Source: Candidatus Obscuribacterales bacterium
GTDB lineage: Bacteria > Cyanobacteriota > Vampirovibrionia > Obscuribacterales > Obscuribacteraceae
Direction: 5' to 3'
Assembly (NCBI GenBank): GCA_965228855.1
Contig: CBDDIJ010000002.1
Span: forward strand, 1-64,000
DNA: 64,000 bases
Translations under genes and position numbers: made by a program
The notes under the pieces: generated by a model
What the model was told of the DNA's origin: nothing
Database searches by the model: none
What the model saw: the letters and a program-made list of their open reading frames with translations, nothing else
Shown here: positions 2,337 through 61,145 of the stretch, piece by piece
Numbering within the stretch: position 1 is the stretch's first letter
Layout: each line of letters opens with the position of its first letter

Positions 2337-2677
2337 GGTGGTCTCTCCTTGTTCGCTGCCAAATAGCTAAGGCTTCGGACGGTCTGCGGCGAGGAAAAAC
2401 AATGCGCCGCACGATGAAATCACGCAACCGCATTCCTGAACCGGGGCGCTATCCGGAATGGCTTTGTGCGCTGGCGCGCCCGGGCCCGGCGGACGCGGCC
2501 AATTGAGGCAGAGATCTTCCACAAGCGCTTGGAAGGCTGGGATTTGTCTCAGGAGGCGCGGGACCCGTCCCGCGGGTTTGAGAGTGGAGAGGGTAACGAG
2601 ACAAGCCCCTCTCTTGCGAGATCGTTGGCACCGCTCCTCGCCGCGCAGCCCGCTCGGAGGCGGTGGCGCTCGACGTT

Positions 2678-2833
2678 GCCCCCCTCTGTCCTGCCGGACA
2701 TCTCCCCCGCAAGGGGGAGATGTGCAGCTTCGGCCTATTCGCCAACCTTCAACGGCGCAGGCGCGGGCGGAGCGCTTGTGACGGCGTGATCTCCCCCCTT
2801 GCGGGGGAGATGTCCGGCAGGACAGAGGGGGGC
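2678..2833. repeat. Inverted pair of REP-like palindromic repeats (family B)
   Basis: GCCCCCCTCTGTCCTGCCGGACATCTCCCCCGCAAGGGGGAGAT (2678-2721) and its near-exact reverse complement (2789-2833). Confidence 0.9.
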
Positions 2834-7615: not shown

Positions 7616-8614
7616 ATGATCGTCCGTATCATGTCCGTCCTGCTTTTCCTCCTTTCGCCGTTCTCCGCCCTTGCCGACGACGCCACCATGGCCGACGGCC
7701 GTGCGCGCTCCGCGGCTTTCCTGAAAGGTGACATCACGTCGATCTGGCAGGACATGACGGCGGAAATGCACGCCGCGCTGGGTTCGCAGGACAAGCTTGC
7801 GGCCTTCCGGACCGAGCTGACGGAAGGGCTGGGCACGGAAGAGCAAGTGATCGACGAGAAGACCGGCTCGGAGGCGGGCTTCGACATCTACCTGCGCACC
7901 GGCCGCTGGTCGAAGACGGAAACGCCGATGCTGATGCAGTGGACCTTCGACAGGCAGCGGAAGATCGCCGGCTTCTTCGTGCGGCCGGCGCCGCAGGCCG
8001 CCGACAGCCGCTTCCTCGATTACGAGACGAAGGCCACCCTCCGCCTGCCCTTCGACGGCGAATGGTATGTCTTCTGGGGCGGCCGCACGCTGGAGCAGAA
8101 CTACCACGCCTCGAACCAGGCGCAGCGCTTCGCCTACGATCTGGTGGTGCGCGAGAACGGCGCGACGCATCGCGGCGACTCAGCCGTGCTGGAGAACTAT
8201 TTCTGCTGGGACCGGCCGATCCTGTCGCCGGCCGACGGAACGGTGGCGGCGGCGATGGCCGACCTGCCCGACCAGCCGATCGGCGGCAGCGACCCGCAGC
8301 GCCCGGCCGGCAACCATGTCGTGCTCGATCTCGGCGGCGGCGAGTTCGCCTTCCTCGCCCACATGCGCCAGGGCAGCGTCACTGTGAAGGCCGGAGACAC
8401 GGTCAGGGCGGGGCAGGAACTCGGCCGCTGCGGCAATTCCGGCAACACCAGCGAGCCGCACCTGCACGTCCACCTGCAGACCAGTGCCGACCTTGCGACC
8501 GGCGAAGGCCTGCCGGCGATGTTCGAGAACTACCTGGCCGACGGGCAGCCGGTGGCGAGAGGCGAGCCGGTGCAGGGCCAGACGGTGGCGCCGGCAGACG
8601 GCAAGGCGCGATAG
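7616..8614 (+). CDS. Secreted M23 family metallopeptidase with N-terminal accessory domain
   Basis: Signal peptide, H...FAYDL, GNHVVL, AHMRQGS, GNSGNTSEPHLHVHLQ (HxH). Confidence 0.88.
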   Translation: MIVRIMSVLLFLLSPFSALADDATMADGRARSAAFLKGDITSIWQDMTAEMHAALGSQDKLAAFRTELTEGLGTEEQVIDEKTGSEAGFDIYLRTGRWSKTETPMLMQWTFDRQRKIAGFFVRPAPQAADSRFLDYETKATLRLPFDGEWYVFWGGRTLEQNYHASNQAQRFAYDLVVRENGATHRGDSAVLENYFCWDRPILSPADGTVAAAMADLPDQPIGGSDPQRPAGNHVVLDLGGGEFAFLAHMRQGSVTVKAGDTVRAGQELGRCGNSGNTSEPHLHVHLQTSADLATGEGLPAMFENYLADGQPVARGEPVQGQTVAPADGKAR

Positions 8615-8670
8615 CGGGCACGCTTCCCGCCGCGCAGCGAGCGGCGGCAGTCGTTCGCACCGAGACGCCG

Positions 8671-8770
8671 CGAGGCGGCTTGGCCCTTATCTCCCCCTTT
8701 GCGGGGAGAAAGCGATTTCAACATCTTAGCCGCAGGCTAAGTGTTAGAAATCGCAAGAGAGGGGCTTGCC
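8671..8770 (+). repeat. Family A structured repeat, copy 1
   Basis: CCCTTATCTCCCCCTTTGCGGGGAGAAAGCGATTTCAACATCTTAGCCGCAGGCTAAGTGTTAGAAATCGCAAGAGAGGGGC. Confidence 0.95.
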
Positions 8771-8771
8771 G

Positions 8772-9108
8772 CTACTTGCGATGACACTGAGAACAGGCCG
8801 CCACCCACCATCGATGTTCGTCTTCACCTCGTCGCTTCAGAAGCGCAGCGTTCGAAATCCCTGGCTCTCGAACAGGCCCCTCTCGGCATCCGACCGCGAC
8901 CCCGGAGTGCAGCCCGCCATCGACGTCGCCGATGAGCTTCAAGCAGAAGAAGGATGTAGCCGCCAAGCGGAACCTGCCGCTTGAACTTCATGCCTTCGAG
9001 CTGCCTGTTGCGCAGAGCTCGGCACAGCACATTCTCTGCCAGCGTCGCGTCGGCGCGCGAAGGGTGGGGGAAGGTGCTATGACGTTCCGGAACAAGACGG
9101 TGGACCAT
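8772..9108 (-). pseudogene. Degenerate DUF559 (Vsr-like) endonuclease gene
   Basis: MVHRLVPERH..ADATLAENVLCRALRNRQLEGMKFKRQVPLGGYI, then a deletion/frameshift, KLIGDVDGGLH in another frame; aligns with 12889-13239. Confidence 0.88.
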
Positions 9109-9112
9109 GGAT

Positions 9113-9191
9113 AGCCCCTCTCTTGCGATTTCCAGCACTTAGCCTGCGGCTAAGATGCTGAAATCGCTTTCTCCCCCGCAAGGGGGGAGAT
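9113..9191 (-). repeat. Family A structured repeat, copy 2 (inverted)
   Basis: AGCCCCTCTCTTGCGATTTCCAGCACTTAGCCTGCGGCTAAGATGCTGAAATCGCTTTCTCCCCCGCAAGGGGGGAGAT. Confidence 0.95.
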
Positions 9192-9316
9192 GGGCGACTG
9201 CATCGCGTGCACCTAGCGATGAACTGGTGTTTCTCGCCACGCCTACCTTCAGGCTGGGCTACGAGACAGGCCCGCTGGGGGCATCAACACCCATGCGAGA
9301 AAGATCATAAGTTGCG

Positions 9317-9418
9317 CAAGGCGACTTGGCCCTTATCTCCCCCCTTGCGGGGGAGATAGCGATTTCAACATCTTAGCCGCAGGCTAAGTGTTAGAAATCG
9401 CAAGAGAGGGGCTTGCCG
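9317..9418 (+). repeat. Family A structured repeat, copy 3
   Basis: Near-identical to copy 1, including the upstream AGGCG(G/A)CTTGGCCCTTATC. Confidence 0.95.
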
Positions 9419-9475
9419 CGCAGCGCGCCCCGGGCGCAGTTCCAATCTCCCGGAACAGGAAGGGATGTCGGACAG

Positions 9476-11470
<1,995 letters not shown>

Positions 11471-11560
11471 GGCAAGCAGACCTTTCGCGTTACCGCGCCT
11501 TTGCGGGCGTCATAGTCGGTTGGGCGCGGAAAGCGAAGGGAAAGTGCGTGGGGCGCTGCC

Positions 11561-11617
11561 TTGATCCTCCCCTGCGAAGCGGGGGAGGGGGACCACACGA
11601 AGTGTGGTGGAGGGGGC
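11561..11617 (+). repeat. Family C REP-like repeat
   Basis: TTGATCCTCCCCTGCGAAGCGGGGGAGGGGGACCACACGAAGTGTGGTGGAGGGGGC; near-identical copy at 14286. Confidence 0.9.
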
Positions 11618-11727
11618 GGCCCGAGCCGCCGCAGCTATTTTCTTGGCGGCGAGCAGACCACCGGACCGATAAGGAGGAGTCCCAACGCCGTGGCTGATAT
11701 CCGGTGCGCTTAACTGTGGATGTTCGG

Positions 11728-12732
11728 CTATTTCGTTTTCAGCGGGCCATCACCTATTACTGCGCCAATGCGATTACGAAGCTTATCGCGCAGTTCTTCG
11801 GGGTTACTCCAAGTGATATGATTGAACTGCCGAGTGTCAAAGTGGACATGCTTGATATGATCGCTTCTGCAAGCCCATATGACCGGAATGCCAAGGCCCT
11901 GCGCGAACCCAGCCTCATAGTATACCCCGCCGCGGGGGATGGCTGTGTCCTCTCCGCCCGAGTTCACGATTCCACAGGTAAAATCTGCCACCACAAACCG
12001 TGATCGGCGAATTTCGGCTATGATCTCATCATCAATTTTGTTGTTGTGTTCCTTTCGATCGAGGCGCATCGGCTTATACCCAGCGGCGGCGATGGCGGGC
12101 TCAATGCCATTGTCGTAGGCTTCTCGCACCTCTTCGGAGAACCACATTGCGACAAACCCTTGCGAGGACGACGTGGGTTTTGCTCGCAATGACTCGATGT
12201 AAGAGTGACCTGCAAAAGTCAGAGACAGGCTGCCATAGCTGTCCTCAATAAGCTTCTGCTCGACCGAAAAATCGATAAGGGCCTTCACCTCCTTAAAGTC
12301 TATGGATTCTGTGGCTGCCAGTAGATAATCCACCTCGGCCCATTGCGGGTTTTGCCGCGATGCATCTGTAGCTATTCTTACAGTTCCTGCTTCACGGTAT
12401 TGCATCCGGGTTCCTAAAGAAGGCGCGTAGCTGGAGACCGTCAAAAGCAGCTTGTCACGCCTTTCTGACACTATATGTGCCGGGCGCTCGACAGCGCGTC
12501 GGACTATTTCTTGAGTAATTAGAGGCCACTCAGTACCCATACTTCTTTGATCTATCAACCACGAGGTCAGGCGTGCTTTTTCTTCGTTTTTTAAGTTGGA
12601 AATCACTACTTTTGCAGAACCAGTTACTTCATACCGGCCGCCCGCTCTTGGGGACTCGTATTGAAAAAGGTCGCCCTTACCGTGGCCGCTGTCGTAAGTT
12701 CTACTTTGCCAAATTGCGCAGGGAGCCGACAT
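11728..12732 (-). CDS. Lower-GC hypothetical protein with C-terminal nucleoside 2-deoxyribosyltransferase/TIR-like domain
   Basis: GFVAMWF...IEPAI..AGY...IDDEIIAEIRRSRFVVADFT...RGGVYYEAGFAQGLGIPVIW..HFDTRQFNHITW; AT-richer codons than flanks. Confidence 0.75.
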   Translation of the reverse strand: MSAPCAIWQSRTYDSGHGKGDLFQYESPRAGGRYEVTGSAKVVISNLKNEEKARLTSWLIDQRSMGTEWPLITQEIVRRAVERPAHIVSERRDKLLLTVSSYAPSLGTRMQYREAGTVRIATDASRQNPQWAEVDYLLAATESIDFKEVKALIDFSVEQKLIEDSYGSLSLTFAGHSYIESLRAKPTSSSQGFVAMWFSEEVREAYDNGIEPAIAAAGYKPMRLDRKEHNNKIDDEIIAEIRRSRFVVADFTCGIVNSGGEDTAIPRGGVYYEAGFAQGLGIPVIWACRSDHIKHVHFDTRQFNHITWSNPEELRDKLRNRIGAVIGDGPLKTK

Positions 12733-12888
12733 TGGTAGTATCGCCTAAGCAGGTGTTATTTAGCATATATTGCCTCGCTCCGATCGCGAAAAGAAGTCGC
12801 TTGTTCGCCACCGCAAACTAGTCGACTGCGCTCCGCAGCACTCGATGATCGCGAGGTAAGGTGTAGAGAACTGCCGCAAAGGCTGTCC

Positions 12889-13239
12889 ATGGTCCACCGT
12901 CTCGCACCGGATCGTCATCGCAGGTTTGCCCGCGCCATGCGCGCCGACGCGACGCGGGCAGAGAATCTGCTGTGGCAGGCGCTGCGGAACCGGCAGCTCG
13001 AAGGGCTGAAGTTCAAGCGGCAGGTTCCGCTTGGCGGCTACATAGTCGATTTCGTCTGCTTCGACGGGAAGCTCATCGTCGAAGTCGATGGCGGCCAGCA
13101 CGCCGGGTCGCAGCCGGACGCGGAGAGAGACGCGTATTTCGAGAGCCAGGGATTTCGCACGCTGCGCTTCTGGAACGACGATGTGGAGAAGAACATCGAT
13201 GGCGTGTGCCGGCATATTCTCAGCGTTGCGCGCGGGTAG
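12889..13239 (+). CDS. DUF559 domain (Vsr-like) endonuclease
   Basis: ARAMRADATRAENLLWQALRNRQLEGLKFKRQVPLGGYIVDFVC..KLIVEVDGGQH..DAERDAYFESQGFRTLRFWN. Confidence 0.93.
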   Translation: MVHRLAPDRHRRFARAMRADATRAENLLWQALRNRQLEGLKFKRQVPLGGYIVDFVCFDGKLIVEVDGGQHAGSQPDAERDAYFESQGFRTLRFWNDDVEKNIDGVCRHILSVARG

Positions 13240-13318
13240 CCCCTCTCTTGCGATTTCTAACACTTAGCCTGCGGCTAAGATGTTGAAATCGCTTTCTCCC
13301 CCGCAAAGGGGGAGATAA
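13238..13318 (-). repeat. Family A structured repeat, copy 4 (abuts the DUF559 stop codon)
   Basis: AGCCCCTCTCTTGCGATTTCTAACACTTAGCCTGCGGCTAAGATGTTGAAATCGCTTTCTCCCCCGCAAAGGGGGAGATAA. Confidence 0.95.
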
Positions 13319-13410
13319 CTGCGTCTCGCGCTATCGCAACGCCCCCACCCCGACGTTTCGCGCCAATCCTCCACGCCGACCCTCCCTGCAGGAGGGATCG
13401 AACCGCAGCG

Positions 13411-13533
13411 CTATACGGCATCCCTGACCTCATAGTCCTTGGATCGCGGTGAAGCTGATCTGCTTCCGGCGGTCCCGCCTCACAACGGTCCGCCTCCTAG
13501 TTGAAGCCGAATTCGTGCGGGGCGAGGAAACCG
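13411..13533 (-). pseudogene. Diverged duplicate of the prfC 3' end
   Basis: Aligns to 14473-14580: ends KDYEVRDAV* versus KDYQVRDAA*, shares GGTGAAGCTGATCTGCTTCC; contains indels and a stop. Confidence 0.85.
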
Positions 13534-13545
13534 AGGCGCGATGCC

Positions 13546-13632
13546 GCCCTTATCTCCCCCCTTGCGGGGGAGAAAGCGATTTCAGCATCTTAGCGGAGCT
13601 AAGTGCTAGAAATCGCAAGAGAGGGGCTTGCC
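13546..13632 (+). repeat. Family A structured repeat, copy 5
   Basis: GCCCTTATCTCCCCCCTTGCGGGGGAGAAAGCGATTTCAGCATCTTAGCGGAGCTAAGTGCTAGAAATCGCAAGAGAGGGGCTTGCC. Confidence 0.95.
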
Positions 13633-13888
13633 GTGGTTCCCTGTGTCGCACGGGACCGTCATCGACGTTCTACCGTTCCCGCAAGGGGGAAATCGGCGCG
13701 CACAACTCTCTCCGCTAAAACTGTTTCGCCTCGCCCGGTGTGAACAAAATCGCGTGGGCGTCTCGGCGCGAGAGAAACAATCCCCGTCATTTCAATCGCT
13801 TGGCGTAGTCCGACGAAATTTCCCGGATCGTTTTTGTCCCCACCTTCCCGACCCGCCCGATACTTCCCCAACCGAAACGGGAGTGACG

Positions 13889-14281
13889 ATGGACAGGCAA
13901 GGCAAGGAGGACGGGCAGGTTCTGGCGCGCATCGTCGTGCTGCTGCTGTCGCTCGCCGCGCTCGCCGCCGCGGCCGGCGCGCTGCCGGCTTCGCGCCGCG
14001 TCCTGCTGCTTGGCGTGTTGCGCCATGCCGCCGCCGTGGCCTCGGCCTTTGCCGCGTGCATCCACGCGCCGGTCGACGGCCGCTGGTGGCCGGCATCCGA
14101 CGAGAGCGAGGCGGCGCAGCTGACGAAAATCTTCGCCGCGCTTGCCCGCGCCCTGGCCGTGCCGGCGCGTCAGGCCATCCGCGCGGCGCGCTGGCTGGCC
14201 CATGGCGCGTTCGCGCTCACCGAGACAACGGCCGGTCGTGAAAGCATCGCGCCGCGTCCGCGCTTTGCCGACACCTCGTGA
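13889..14281 (+). CDS. Hypothetical Ala/Leu-rich protein
   Basis: GGGAG RBS before ATG; MDRQGKEDGQVLARIVVLLLSLAALA... Confidence 0.5.
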   Translation: MDRQGKEDGQVLARIVVLLLSLAALAAAAGALPASRRVLLLGVLRHAAAVASAFAACIHAPVDGRWWPASDESEAAQLTKIFAALARALAVPARQAIRAARWLAHGAFALTETTAGRESIAPRPRFADTS

Positions 14282-14285
14282 GACG

Positions 14286-14461
14286 TTGATCCTCCCCTGC
14301 GAAGCGGGGGGGACCACACGAAGTGTGGTGGAGGGGGCCGCCGGGCTTTGCCGCGGGCAGAAGGGGACTGAGCACGAAACGAACGGAGGCAGCATCAAGT
14401 CGCCCCCTCCGCCTCGCACGGCTGCGCCGGCTCGGCACCTCCCCCGCTGCGCAGGGGAGGA
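14286..14461. repeat. Inverted pair of family C repeats
   Basis: Forward copy 14286-14338; diverged inverted copy 14402-14461 (CACCTCCCCCGCTGCGCAGGGGAGGA). Confidence 0.8.
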
Positions 14462-14472
14462 ACCGGTCGGCG

Positions 14473-16059
14473 CTACGCCGCATCCCTGACCTGGTAATCC
14501 TTGATGGCGGTGAAGCTGATCTGCTTCCAGCGCTCCGCCTCGTAGTTGAGGCCGAACTCATGCGGCGCGAGGAACACCGGGTCGCCGTCGAGGTCGCGGG
14601 CAATGTCGCCGCGGTGGCTCTCGATGAAACGGTGGAGCTCGGTCTTGTCGCCGGCGATCCAGCGGCAGACGGAAAACCGCGCCATCTCGAAATCGACCGG
14701 CAGGCTGTATTCGATGTTGAGGCGTTCCTTCAGCACGTCGAGCTGCAGTGCGCCGACGACGCCGACGATGGCCGGCGAGCCGTCCTCCGGCTGGAACAAT
14801 TGCACCACGCCTTCCTCGGCCATCTGCTGCAGCGCTTCCTTCAGCTTCTTCGCCTTCATGGCGTCGCCGAGGCGGACGCGGCGCAGGATTTCCGGCGCGA
14901 AATTGGGCACGCCGCGGAACAGGATGTCCTCGCCCTCGGTCAGCGTGTCGCCGATCCTGAGCGTGCCGTGGTTGGGGATGCCGACGACGTCGCCGGCGAA
15001 CGCCTCGTCGGCGGTGATGCGCGAGCGGGCGAAGAAGAATTGCGGCGCCGACAGGCTCATCTGCTTGCCGGTGCGCACCAGCTTGGCCTTCATGCCGCGC
15101 TCCAGCGTGCCCGAGCACACACGCACGAAGGCGATGCGGTCGCGGTGGTTGGGGTCCATGTTGGCCTGGATCTTGAAGACGAAGGCGGTCATGTCCGCCT
15201 CGGTCGCCTCGACCTTGCGGGTGTCGGCCTCCTGGGCGCGCGGCGCCGGGCCGAAGGCGCCGAGCGCCTCGATCAGGTCGCGGACGCCGAAATTGCGCAA
15301 GGCAGAGCCGAAGAACACCGGCGTCAAATGGCCCTCGCGGAACGCCTTCGCGTCGAACGGCTTGCAGGCCTCGCGCGCCAGCTCCAGCTCCTCGATGAAG
15401 GCGGGGCGGTCGTTCTCGGGCAAGAGCCCGGCGACGCGGTTGGAATCGGGCCGTTGACCGGCGTCCGCTCGGCCTCGGTGTCGGAGCGGCGCACGGCGTT
15501 GTCGGCGAGATGATAGGTGCCGGCGAACGTCTTGCCCTGGCCGATCGGCCAGGTGATCGGCGCGGTGTCGAGCGCCAGCTTCTGCTCCACCTCGTCGAGG
15601 ATCTCGAACGGTGTCGCGCGCCTCGCGGTCCATCTTGTTGACGAAGGTGATGATCGGGATGTCGCGCAGCCGGCAGACCTCGAACAGCTTCAGCGTGCGC
15701 GGCTCGATGCCCTTGGCGGCGTCGATGACCATGACGGCGCTGTCGACCGCGGTCAGCGTGCGGTAGGTGTCGTCGGCAAAATCCTCGTGGCCCGGCGTGT
15801 CCAGGAGGTTGAAGACGTGGTCGCCATATTCGAACGTCATCACCGAGGTGACGACGGAGATACCGCGCTCGCGCTCGATCTTCATCCAGTCGGAGCGGGT
15901 CTGGATGCGATCCTTCTTGGGCCTTGACCTCGCCGGCCAGCTGGATGGCGCCGCCGAACAGCAGCAGCTTCTCGGTCAGCGTGGTCTTGCCGGCGTCCGG
16001 TGCGCGATGATCGCGAAAGTGCGGCGGCGCGCGACGGCGCGTTCGATGTCTTCGGCCAT
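14473..16059 (-). CDS. prfC: Peptide chain release factor 3, with about four single-base frameshifts (probably sequencing indels)
   Basis: [83 protein letters not shown]. Confidence 0.95.
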
Positions 16060-60075: not shown

Positions 60076-60204
60076 CCCCTCCACCACGCTTCGCGTGATC
60101 CCCCTCCCCCGCTTCGCAGGGGAGGATCCAGTTCGCGGCCGGCCGCTTCGCGGGTCCTCCCCCGTTTACGGGGGAGGGGGACCGCCGGAGGCGGTGGAGG
60201 GGGC
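60076..60204. repeat. Inverted pair of family C-like repeats
   Basis: CCCCTCCACCACGCTTCGCGTGATCCCCCTCCCCCGCTTCGCAGGGGAGGATC (60076-60128) and TCCTCCCCCGTTTACGGGGGAGGGGGACCGCCGGAGGCGGTGGAGGGGGC (60155-60204). Confidence 0.85.
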
Positions 60205-60227
60205 ATGACGGCGCGAAGGAGAGCAGC

Positions 60228-61145
60228 TTGAAAGCAAAACTCGGCATGTCCCCCATCGCGTGGTGGAACGACGATCTCGCCGAACTTTCCGACGACGTCT
60301 CGCTGGAAGAATGCCTACGGCAATCGCGCTCGGCGGGTTTCACCGGCATGGAGATGGGCCGGCGCTTCCCGAGCGACCCTGCAGTGATGCTGCCGATTCT
60401 CAAGGCGGCCGACGTGACGCTGTGCGGCGGCTGGTTCTCCGGAACGCTGGTGAACGAGGACCTCGCCGCCAACAAGGACCGCATCCAGCCGATGATCGAG
60501 CTGTTCAAGTCGGTCGACGCGCCGTGCATCGTCTATGGCGAGGTCGGGCGGTCGATCCAGGGCGACCGCTCGAAACCACTCGCCACCAAGCCGAAACTCG
60601 CCGACGACGAGATGAAGGCCTATGCGCGCAAGGCGACCGAGTTCGGCGAATGGTGCGCGGAACAGGGCATGCCGCTCGCTTACCACCACCACATGGCCGC
60701 GGTGGTCGAGACCGAGCCGGAGCTCGACGCGTTCATGCGCCATTCCGGCGACGGCATCCCGCTGCTGCTCGACGCCGGCCACCTGGCGTTCGCCGGCGGC
60801 GACGTGCTGGCGGCGATCGACAAGCATCACAAGCGCATCAATCATGTGCATGTTAAGGACATCCGCCGCGCGGTGATCCACGGCCTCGACCACTCGAAGC
60901 AATCCTTCCTCGACGCCGTGGCGCTGGGAGCCTTCACCGTGCCGGGCGACGGCTCGCTCGATTTCGGCGCCATCGTCCAGCGCTTCGCCGACCACGGCTA
61001 CGAAGGCTGGTTCGTGGTCGAGGCCGAGCAGGACCCGCGCAAGAACCCGCCGCTCCGGATGGCCGAGGTCGGCCACAAGGAACTGATGCGGGTGATGACC
61101 GCCGCAGGCTATACCGTCGAGACCCAGGGGTTCCCCGCGACGTGA
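60228..61145 (+). CDS. iolE: myo-Inosose-2 dehydratase
   Basis: PIAWWNDD, AYHHHM, LLDAGH, HVHVKD, FTVPGDG, VVEAEQDP; TTG start. Confidence 0.95.
   Translation: MKAKLGMSPIAWWNDDLAELSDDVSLEECLRQSRSAGFTGMEMGRRFPSDPAVMLPILKAADVTLCGGWFSGTLVNEDLAANKDRIQPMIELFKSVDAPCIVYGEVGRSIQGDRSKPLATKPKLADDEMKAYARKATEFGEWCAEQGMPLAYHHHMAAVVETEPELDAFMRHSGDGIPLLLDAGHLAFAGGDVLAAIDKHHKRINHVHVKDIRRAVIHGLDHSKQSFLDAVALGAFTVPGDGSLDFGAIVQRFADHGYEGWFVVEAEQDPRKNPPLRMAEVGHKELMRVMTAAGYTVETQGFPAT

Follow-up and report, generated by a model that had tools for sequence, protein, structure and literature searches.

Miniature inverted-repeat transposable elements (MITEs) and mobile insertion cassettes have terminal inverted repeats, carry either no gene or a passenger gene without a transposase, and are insertion-polymorphic. 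Homing nucleases such as I-Bth0305I spread in another way: this small enzyme of the Vsr fold (EDxHD) is encoded in a phage intron, has an added DNA-binding region, and its gene is propagated by cutting followed by repair copying. A third kind of system is formed by the repetitive extragenic palindromic (REP) sequences and their RAYT genes, on which Nunvar reportedly also worked in 2010. Here, a nuclease-type gene is found between inverted copies of a short dispersed hairpin repeat, and the repeats, which mostly occur as inverted pairs, greatly outnumber the genes (excerpted texts of Bertels and Rainey 2011, PMC3116915, and of PMC3337134). BoxC/PIT/TMECO repeats, finally, are composed of a pyrimidine block, a short loop, the complementary purine block, a second loop and a G-rich block; Holder et al. 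2015 count 23 copies in E. coli K-12 and, in the excerpted text, report that no mobility genes were found nearby, and the words endonuclease, DUF559 and Vsr are absent from that excerpt, in which Hoyne et al. 2000 is named (PMC4666352). For decades, BoxC/PIT-type repeats and the structured repeats of rhizobia have been listed without an enzyme partner, and DUF559, a large nuclease family with a solved structure, has been assigned a role only in one Caulobacter study. Here, we describe a cassette in which a DUF559 gene is framed by two inverted copies of a structured 88-bp repeat, and compare it with these systems. It was found in a stretch of 64,000 nucleotides (positions 1 to 64,000 of contig CBDDIJ010000002.1, assembly GCA_965228855.1, filed under Candidatus Obscuribacterales bacterium), referred to below as the window, for which an earlier note, written from the letters and a list of open reading frames (ORFs) alone, had proposed a mobile system made of nuclease and repeats.

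The cassette is about 530-540 bp in size and consists of an arm, a 116-aa DUF559 gene and an inverted arm. Each 88-bp repeat is built, in this order, of a first hairpin, a long imperfect second hairpin and a G-rich tail, GAGAGGGGC, and the two arms of a cassette, 88-110 bp long with a complementarity of 85-96%, form terminal inverted repeats. Within the clade of the window gene (clade A), all 18 genes outside the window that have both flanks readable are framed by inverted arms (in Mesorhizobium, Phyllobacterium, Oricola, Chelativorans and others), which becomes 19 of 19 cassettes when the decayed copy of the window is included; since the genomes hold a few dozen repeat copies in 4-6 Mb, framing by chance is negligible. 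The window protein has 19 matches in five complete genomes, and the six best (E up to 1e-45) together with one at 52% identity are framed, that is, seven genes in four genomes, each flanked by a plus copy to its left and a minus copy to its right, with the tails facing inwards. In the same five genomes, the 88-bp family frames neither of two other matches at 53% identity nor any of the weaker ones. Among 31 Phyllobacterium genomes, an intact clade gene is found in seven, one of them with two copies, and a broken one in an eighth, and all eight copies fetched, L178-L184 among them, are framed. In most cassettes, the tail motif GAGAGGGG precedes the start codon by 5-40 nt. One metagenome cassette (L252, 68% identity) is an exception to the layout, with the heads and not the tails of its repeats turned toward the gene.

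The repeats also occur apart from the gene. A pattern scan of species-representative genomes with a 19-nt repeat core gave at least 123 places, which, among the matches listed, are in Mesorhizobium, Phyllobacterium, Neorhizobium, Chelativorans, Oricola, Nitratireductor, Rhizobium, Ensifer and further relatives. Adjacent repeats are inverted with respect to each other in 109 of 111 pairs (56 tail-to-tail, 53 head-to-head; some loci overlap and a few pairs are counted twice), and a repeat is mostly paired with a copy of a second subtype, whose second hairpin differs but remains self-complementary. In tail-to-tail pairs the spacer measures 9-85 bp, in one case 152 bp, or 359-406 bp, and every spacer of 359-406 bp contains a DUF559 gene, the sole cargo seen between arms at the pattern loci (framed genes at L012, L057, L061 and L078). 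With overlapping loci included, 6 of the 56 tail-to-tail pairs are filled with the gene. Some clustering was observed: in a Mesorhizobium genome of 6.3 Mb (G041), 21 of 22 repeat BLAST matches fall within about 115 kb (approximately 4.41-4.52 Mb) around three DUF559 cassettes, and the five copies of the window lie within 5 kb, which suggests local spread or a repeat-rich region. In a plasmid collection, eight records match, and only one of them, a Rhizobium plasmid, does so on the repeat part, where it is gene-less.

The gene and its two arms are a discrete unit with defined ends, which a site has either entire or not at all. Cassettes resemble each other up to the outer ends of their arms and no further, both in Phyllobacterium and between the window and its closest metagenome relatives, and no flank synteny between the window and the latter (L245-L253) was found beyond the cassette. 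Orthologous positions are shared by the pairs L180/L181 and L182/L183, and the surroundings of the remaining Phyllobacterium cassettes are unrelated. L179 and L181, which lie at non-orthologous sites, share 90% identity, whereas L180, the true orthologue of L181, is 77% identical to it. Several copies can be present per genome, three in G041, two in G456 and two, one of them decayed, in the window. At three cassette sites, comparison with 35 orthologous loci of other Phyllobacterium species (17, 13 and 5, respectively) revealed no full copy of the repeat, and the cassette-less sites consist of 18-39 bp or hold quite different repeat families. One intergenic site of this genus (L162-L177) is occupied by at least five unrelated repeat families, which alternate among species, or by nothing, and can be called a hot spot for small repeats. 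Among 400 genomes of the family, no close relative was found for the two sites of the window, the best match being 78% identity on the helicase gene. No transposase was seen beside the cassettes examined, for which no systematic search was made. In contigs from public runs (X1, X2 and X3) the window sequence is identical and breaks at the repeats, and none of them joins across a cassette; joints listed for X5, with 20-29 letters on each side, are not considered reliable. No RNA data set was listed among the public runs with this sequence.

In the window, two homologous DUF559 genes are present, one intact and one decayed, with 84.5% nucleotide identity over 335 aligned bases (Table 1). The decayed gene aligns in ten blocks split by indels, contains in-frame stops in all three frames and has lost the segment with the catalytic D54. 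It lies exactly between repeat copies 1 and 2, which are mutually inverted and turn both G-rich tails toward it. The tail of copy 2 stops 5 nt before the ATG, with GAGAGGGG at the position of a ribosome-binding site, and 7 nt separate the homologous stop from the repeat, which has the same orientation relative to the gene as at the intact copy, whose stop codon TAG (13237-13239) overlaps the first repeat bases. Directly before the ATG of the intact gene, a 14-nt segment is probably the leftover of an upstream arm's tail. The intact copy was probably two-armed in the past and lost this arm to a low-GC island at 11.7-12.85 kb, because the tail-like trace remains and the island begins there. Both genes, the repeat near each stop codon in the same relative orientation, the second, inverted repeat before the decayed gene's ATG, two stand-alone repeat copies and an 18-nt tail fragment had all been described in the earlier note, and all are recovered, the stand-alone copies by nhmmer and the fragment in the sequence itself; the repeat family that it had put at about 85 bp is likewise real, with a length that has to be corrected to 88-91 bp.

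An nhmmer profile built from the five window copies was run on the whole assembly of 8,218,057 bases. It returned these five copies, all of them 88-91 bp long, at E 2e-26 to 2e-29, and no further full-length copy, and in the repeat listing four of the five are 92-96% identical to each other pairwise. A shorter, related repeat, family C, shares the first hairpin and the G-rich tail with the 88-bp repeat, but has a short middle hairpin; its motif is also found upstream of DUF559 paralogues in three other genera (L134, L137 and L138).

Table 1. Positions in the window of the DUF559 genes, the 88-bp repeat copies and related segments
Feature	Position	Strand	Evidence and remarks
Intact DUF559 gene, 116 aa	12889-13239	+	Pfam PF04480, E 1.6e-40, 137.8 bits vs cut-off 20.6
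Decayed DUF559 pseudogene	8772-9108	-	tblastn, 74% and 62% identity in two frames
Probable remnant of the lost upstream arm's tail, 14 nt	12875-12888	+	By-eye comparison with the upstream junction of the decayed copy
Repeat copy 1	8683-8772	+	nhmmer E 3.7e-28; downstream arm of decayed DUF559 gene
Repeat copy 2	9107-9197	-	nhmmer E 1.2e-27; upstream arm of decayed DUF559 gene
Repeat copy 3	9329-9419	+	nhmmer E 2.2e-29; gene-less; head-to-head with copy 2, 131-bp spacer
Repeat copy 4	13232-13322	-	nhmmer E 8.2e-29; downstream arm of intact gene, overlaps stop codon
Repeat copy 5	13546-13634	+	nhmmer E 1.9e-26; gene-less; head-to-head with copy 4, 223-bp spacer
Lone tail fragment of the 88-bp repeat, 18 nt	2602-2619	-	Inverted-repeat listing and sequence
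Family C repeat, inverted pair, shorter, related to the 88-bp repeat	2678-2832		Inverted-repeat listing and sequence

The first hairpin of the 88-bp repeat is composed of a pyrimidine block, ATCTCCCCCC, a 4-nt loop and a purine block, GGGGGAGA, and the second of GCGATTTC...CTTAGCC / GGCTAAG...GAAATCGC. In 152 length-matched copies, taken from 214 distinct copies of other genomes, compensatory changes preserve both hairpins: in hairpin 2, a GC pair in 82 copies is AT in 64, a CG pair in 86 is GC in 60, and an AT pair in 109 is GC in 33, and in hairpin 1 a TA pair in 82 copies is CG in 52. For every hairpin pair except one, 91-100% of the cells are paired. No Rfam family reaches its gathering score in window positions 8000-15000, where the best match is whalefall-1 with 22 bits against a required 37.

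The intact protein has the catalytic residues D54, E65, D67 and H71. Across 39 sequences, W29, D54, E65, D67, G68 and R93 do not vary, and the conservation of H71 is 90% or more. The ratio of nonsynonymous to synonymous substitution rates is 0.06-0.17 in seven gene pairs, which include the three copies of G041, and these codon comparisons indicate that the gene is under purifying selection. By sequence, the protein matches an uncharacterised Neisseria DUF559 protein of solved structure (PDB 3HRL; phmmer E 8.3e-24), and no match to Vsr was found in the PDB at E up to 1. A confident AlphaFold2 model of the 116-aa protein (predicted local distance difference test score, pLDDT, 87.8) has 3HRL as its top Foldseek match as well (E 3.6e-9, template-modelling (TM) scores 0.73/0.89), followed by the catalytic domain of the homing endonuclease I-Bth0305I (3R3P; E 1.1e-4, TM 0.60/0.70, probability 1.00), and Vsr itself scores far lower (1CW0, E 0.1, TM 0.59/0.46; 1VSR, E 0.19). 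A Pfam search of the window gene gave no match to an HUH tyrosine transposase, only DUF559 and a weak REase_MTES_1575, and PADLOC gave only a marginal match to DpdF (E 5.8e-4) for the nuclease. Since arm identity among the three G041 cassettes is 92-96%, against a difference of 47-57% at the synonymous sites of their genes, the arms are either strongly constrained in sequence or homogenised with other genomic copies. In eight Phyllobacterium cassettes (L132, L178-L184), the codon aligned to the Mesorhizobium start ATG is ATC, ATT or ATA, and in L132, which was traced by hand, the few open codons upstream contain no ATG, GTG or TTG; either a rare codon or the conserved internal Met17 may serve as the start of translation.

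Framing by inverted repeats is the general arrangement of small DUF559 genes. Of 121 alphaproteobacterial genomes searched with Pfam, 31 contain the family, and 30 loci were taken, one per genome, 29 of which were testable. An inverted repeat scoring above 26 bits directly flanks the ORF at 22 of these 29 loci, one of them a cassette already counted in the window's clade, and reaches at least 40 bits in 14, and none of 56 controls shifted by 800 bp scores above 25.6 bits. In an independent metagenome set of 80 loci, 50 of 62 are framed as compared with 0 of 94 controls, which brings the shifted controls of both sets to 0 of 150. The arms of the alphaproteobacterial set are composed of a hairpin, CCCTCTCCC-loop-GGGAGAGGG, followed toward the gene by a G-rich block, for example GGGTGAGGGG. 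Arm and gene variants go together: ten diverged DUF559 copies in one genome (G559) each have their own arm variant, equal on both sides, and in 23 of 46 cassettes the best match of the upstream arm among all downstream arms is its own. In addition, two more distant paralogue groups each keep their position across several genera, in front of a GFA-like gene in one case and of a hydantoinase-like gene in the other (L134/L137/L138 and L139/L141/L142).

Some further features of these DUF559 genes were observed. Several ORFs (L209, L212, L215, L219, L226 and L237) read through into the downstream arm, which gives Pro/Gly-rich tails (...PHPPL..., ...SPSRGEG...), and in L216 the DUF559 domain is part of an in-frame fusion with a 369-aa ORF, the remainder of which resembles, by eye, a restriction-specificity subunit. 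E. coli K-12 has a BoxC-type motif approximately 170 nt downstream of its sole DUF559 gene, ycjD. The fabI-ycjD-sapF stretch is found in 3346 of 5426 complete E. coli genomes, and the eefRABCD operon is present instead in the others; for this operon at least two losses have been inferred, each with ycjD left where the operon had been (excerpt of PMC12817139). As eefRABCD occupies the alternative allele, ycjD as a clean cassette-only indel was ruled out.

The earlier note had taken the gene and its flanking repeats for a unit. The framing of all 18 readable clade genes outside the window, homology that ends at the arm ends and the absence of the whole, repeats included, from the 35 orthologous sites in relatives bear this out; DUF559 genes are also flanked by such repeats far more often than shifted positions (22/29 and 50/62 against 0/56 and 0/94), and the repeat variant co-varies with the gene, as was anticipated, the own arm being the best partner in half of the cassettes. 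A further expectation, that the repeats depend on an intact cognate gene, finds no support in the Phyllobacterium genomes discussed below.

How the unit moves is less certain. The reading we prefer, and to which we give a little less than an even chance, is that the 530-bp block is a selfish element: the DUF559 nuclease would cut at its own structure-forming arms, and host recombination or repair would then copy the block to a new site. As a PD-(D/E)xK nuclease can cut DNA and, to our knowledge, is not known to join it, such copying would be dependent on recombination, and homing-like rather than transposase-like. Action of the nuclease on the arms seems the most economical idea because the pairing is exclusive over a great sequence distance, the arms are matched and the predicted fold is like that of a homing endonuclease. 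Gene-less repeats would be non-autonomous relatives that persist alone.

A number of observations weigh against a selfish element of this kind. Among the 35 orthologous sites, none has an empty repeat pair, which speaks against it and makes it less likely that cassettes usually home into existing repeat pairs. Neither a target-site duplication nor a clean edge of the insertion was recognised at the compared sites, which are diverged or rearranged, and at the best-resolved one the cassette stands in place of 100-140 bp of other sequence. A cassette-less form is absent from the contigs of the three runs with identical sequence, and the mid-size spacers (82-152 bp) of gene-less Mesorhizobium pairs, considered as gene remnants, were rejected, only the arms being alignable. 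In both syntenic paralogue groups, a group-specific repeat of hairpin and G-tail stands upstream of the gene and none downstream, a layout unlike that of the cassette. In Caulobacter, the DUF559-domain protein VsrA has, according to the excerpted text of PMC12907096, a cellular, Vsr-like role; because it causes DNA damage in vivo, members of the DUF559 superfamily can be regarded as active nucleases. Repeat numbers are a further point. In Phyllobacterium, where one subtype was counted and all values are floors, eight genomes with the gene, one of them with a broken gene, hold at least 8-34 copies, eight genomes without a clade-A gene hold as many, at least 12-53, and 15 further genomes without the gene hold at least 0-4. 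Copies from the gene-less genomes match the query at 93-96% identity, as do those from gene-bearing ones, and in four repeat-rich gene-less drafts (G445, G395, G464 and G465) the window query found no DUF559 match at E 1e-5. The clade gene thus occurs only where the repeat is abundant, and the repeat has no need of the gene, at least not now.

These numbers speak for a passenger role of DUF559. The repeats would be miniature elements, mobile or recombinogenic, moved by an unlinked transposase or by host recombination, and DUF559 would be cargo with a cellular role, in Vsr-like mismatch nicking or in defence, transported between two repeats in the manner of a mobile insertion cassette, a model that we consider unlikely, if still to be reckoned with. 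In addition to the numerous and well-conserved repeats of the eight clade-A-less genomes, four of them without a DUF559 match, it can account for the excess of gene-less over filled pairs (6 of 56 tail-to-tail pairs filled) and for the intergenic site with its five or more unrelated repeat families, which points to a general repeat-inserting activity, and the Caulobacter protein provides a precedent for a chromosomal role (PMC12907096, excerpt). It does not explain, however, why DUF559 is the sole cargo seen between arms or why the pairing recurs with quite different arm sequences across the class and in metagenomes, and random capture does not predict the matching of arms within a cassette. 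The cassettes examined, albeit without a systematic search, also have no transposase beside them.

The analogy with RAYT and REPIN drawn in the earlier note holds for the layout and not for the life style. In the form in which a resident DUF559 gene spreads or maintains dispersed repeats in trans and the adjoining repeats mark the partnership, we judge it improbable. Repeats do far outnumber genes (22-57 repeat BLAST matches vs 1-3 clade-A genes in each complete genome), all eight gene-bearing Phyllobacterium genomes, including the one with the broken gene, are rich in repeats, and the gene is absent from each of the 15 repeat-poor genomes; yet half of the repeat-rich genomes are gene-less, among them the two richest (53 and 48 copies), and with few, related genomes the association is statistically weak. 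The two paralogue groups, which are single-copy, syntenic across genera and provided with their own upstream repeat variant, fit such a role better than the window's clade, which is multi-copy, non-orthologous and decaying, unlike RAYTs, and is found at varying sites. E. coli K-12, with its sole ycjD close to one of 23 BoxC-type motifs in all (PMC4666352, excerpt), is another case in point, and against the analogy the enzyme is without the HUH/tyrosine strand-transfer chemistry. That nothing moves at all, the repeats being regulatory or structural signals (terminator, ribosome-binding-site donor, insulator) of a small gene and their recurrence a matter of descent, is highly improbable. The position of GAGAGGGG ahead of the start codon in most cassettes would suit this, and the hairpins could stop read-through transcription on both sides; the reading is already contradicted by a block that is present or absent whole at three sites, by near-identical cassettes at non-orthologous sites, by unrelated flanks in all metagenome relatives and by the many repeat copies, the majority, that have no adjoining gene.

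The source of the window deserves comment. Its G+C content is 66% to about 62 kb and 52% thereafter, the rest of this contig (C2) being at 50-58%, and another contig (C4) is at 25-31% for 55 kb and then at 60-68%. Neither the repeat nor the DUF559 gene was found elsewhere in the assembly, and the repeat is absent from all 40 genomes counted as relatives of the assembly. Since the repeat core is found in Mesorhizobium, Phyllobacterium and relatives, the repeat, the DUF559 gene and the first 62 kb of the window are assigned, on sequence grounds, to a rhizobial-type bacterium, which points to a chimeric contig or a co-assembled associate. The runs with identical sequence are filed under two organism labels (X1/X2 and X3).

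The neighbours of the two DUF559 copies are genes for an M23 peptidase and a DEAD-box helicase, a TIR-like gene and prfC. No cytosine-5 methyltransferase gene lies beside either copy (ORFs of 7.5-15.5 kb), and an unlinked partner, as in Caulobacter, is possible. The low-GC island, approximately 11700-12850, has 58% G+C in its 2-kb bin as compared with 66-69% around it. Its gene (11728-12732, minus strand) encodes 334 aa with a TIR-effector-like C-terminal part, matches PADLOC PDLC00733 (E 4e-7) and, weakly, the Pfam nucleoside 2-deoxyribosyltransferase family, and is possibly a defence gene inserted where the upstream arm of the intact DUF559 gene belongs. A further repeat, family B, is found at 11560-11625, 14285-14342, 14438-14473 and approximately 60155-60260 of the window; it consists of a hairpin, TCCTCCCCTGCGAAGCGGGGGAGG, followed by GGGACCACACGAAGTGTGGTGGAGGGGGC, and its block logic is like that of the 88-bp repeat, with a pyrimidine/purine hairpin, a small hairpin and a G-rich block. 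Positions 13408-13525 are a second copy, about 115 bp long and 82-91% identical, of the 3' terminus of the release-factor-3 gene (14470-14590), 1,061 bp upstream of the true gene end. The interval between the two end copies contains a 130-aa ORF (13889-14281) as well as repeat copy 5 and repeats of family B. This looks like an insertion into the gene end that was healed via the duplication.

The physical pairing of DUF559 with repeats gives both the gene family and the repeats a testable function, and we could not find a published description of it in a search outside which subscription journals and supplements lay. If the nuclease acts on the arms, the cassette would be a second, chemically different solution to the task of RAYT and REP, and the smallest kind of gene-carrying mobile cassette. 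More broadly, DUF559 genes with matched arms of the hairpin/triplex type may be unrecognised, very widespread autonomous mini-elements with a Vsr-fold nuclease, and the BoxC/PIT/triplex repeats and the rhizobial 88-bp family their non-autonomous offspring; we offer this as a tentative and rather doubtful proposal. Of practical relevance is that cassettes split intergenic regions and operons, break assemblies and confuse the prediction of small RNAs and terminators in rhizobia.

Compared with MITEs and mobile insertion cassettes, the DUF559 cassette has arms of 88 bp with two conserved hairpins each, its cargo is always of one nuclease family, and no target-site duplication was recognised for it. 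RIME and Sm-repeats, with which the comparison is by description only, are structured intergenic repeats of the same bacterial group, and no link to DUF559 is mentioned in the excerpted text (PMC2573895). The block order of BoxC is present in most DUF559 cassette arms and in the first hairpin and tail of the 88-bp repeat, from which BoxC differs in having no extra hairpin of 45-65 nt in the second loop; the 88-bp repeat resembles a BoxC motif lengthened there by a long hairpin. Both repeats are intergenic, widespread and of unexplained origin, as far as the excerpt of PMC4666352 goes; in a crude test for mirror symmetry, the third block was recognised toward the gene for 15 of 20 arms and toward the outside for 7 of 20, a weak result from the only 20 arms caught. 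The Vsr superfamily is common to DUF559 and Vsr, although the predicted fold resembles that of E. coli Vsr only weakly (E 0.1), and Vsr genes, unlike DUF559, have not been described as repeat-framed. I-Bth0305I is the best characterised structural match of the predicted DUF559 protein; in contrast to it, the DUF559 gene is free-standing and intergenic and has long structured inverted arms, and no empty target allele was found among the 35 sites. With REP/REPIN and RAYT, the cassette shares the nuclease-type gene between inverted repeats, the inverted pairing and the excess of repeats. RAYT is an HUH tyrosine transposase, whereas DUF559 is a nuclease of the PD-(D/E)xK/Vsr fold; RAYTs have been described as single-copy and vertically inherited, whereas the DUF559 clade is multi-copy, decaying and at differing sites in sister species; and the 88-bp repeats thrive in genomes that lack the gene. 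The systems to which the cassette is most akin are REP/RAYT and free-standing homing endonuclease genes, and it differs from them in its enzyme and its repeats.

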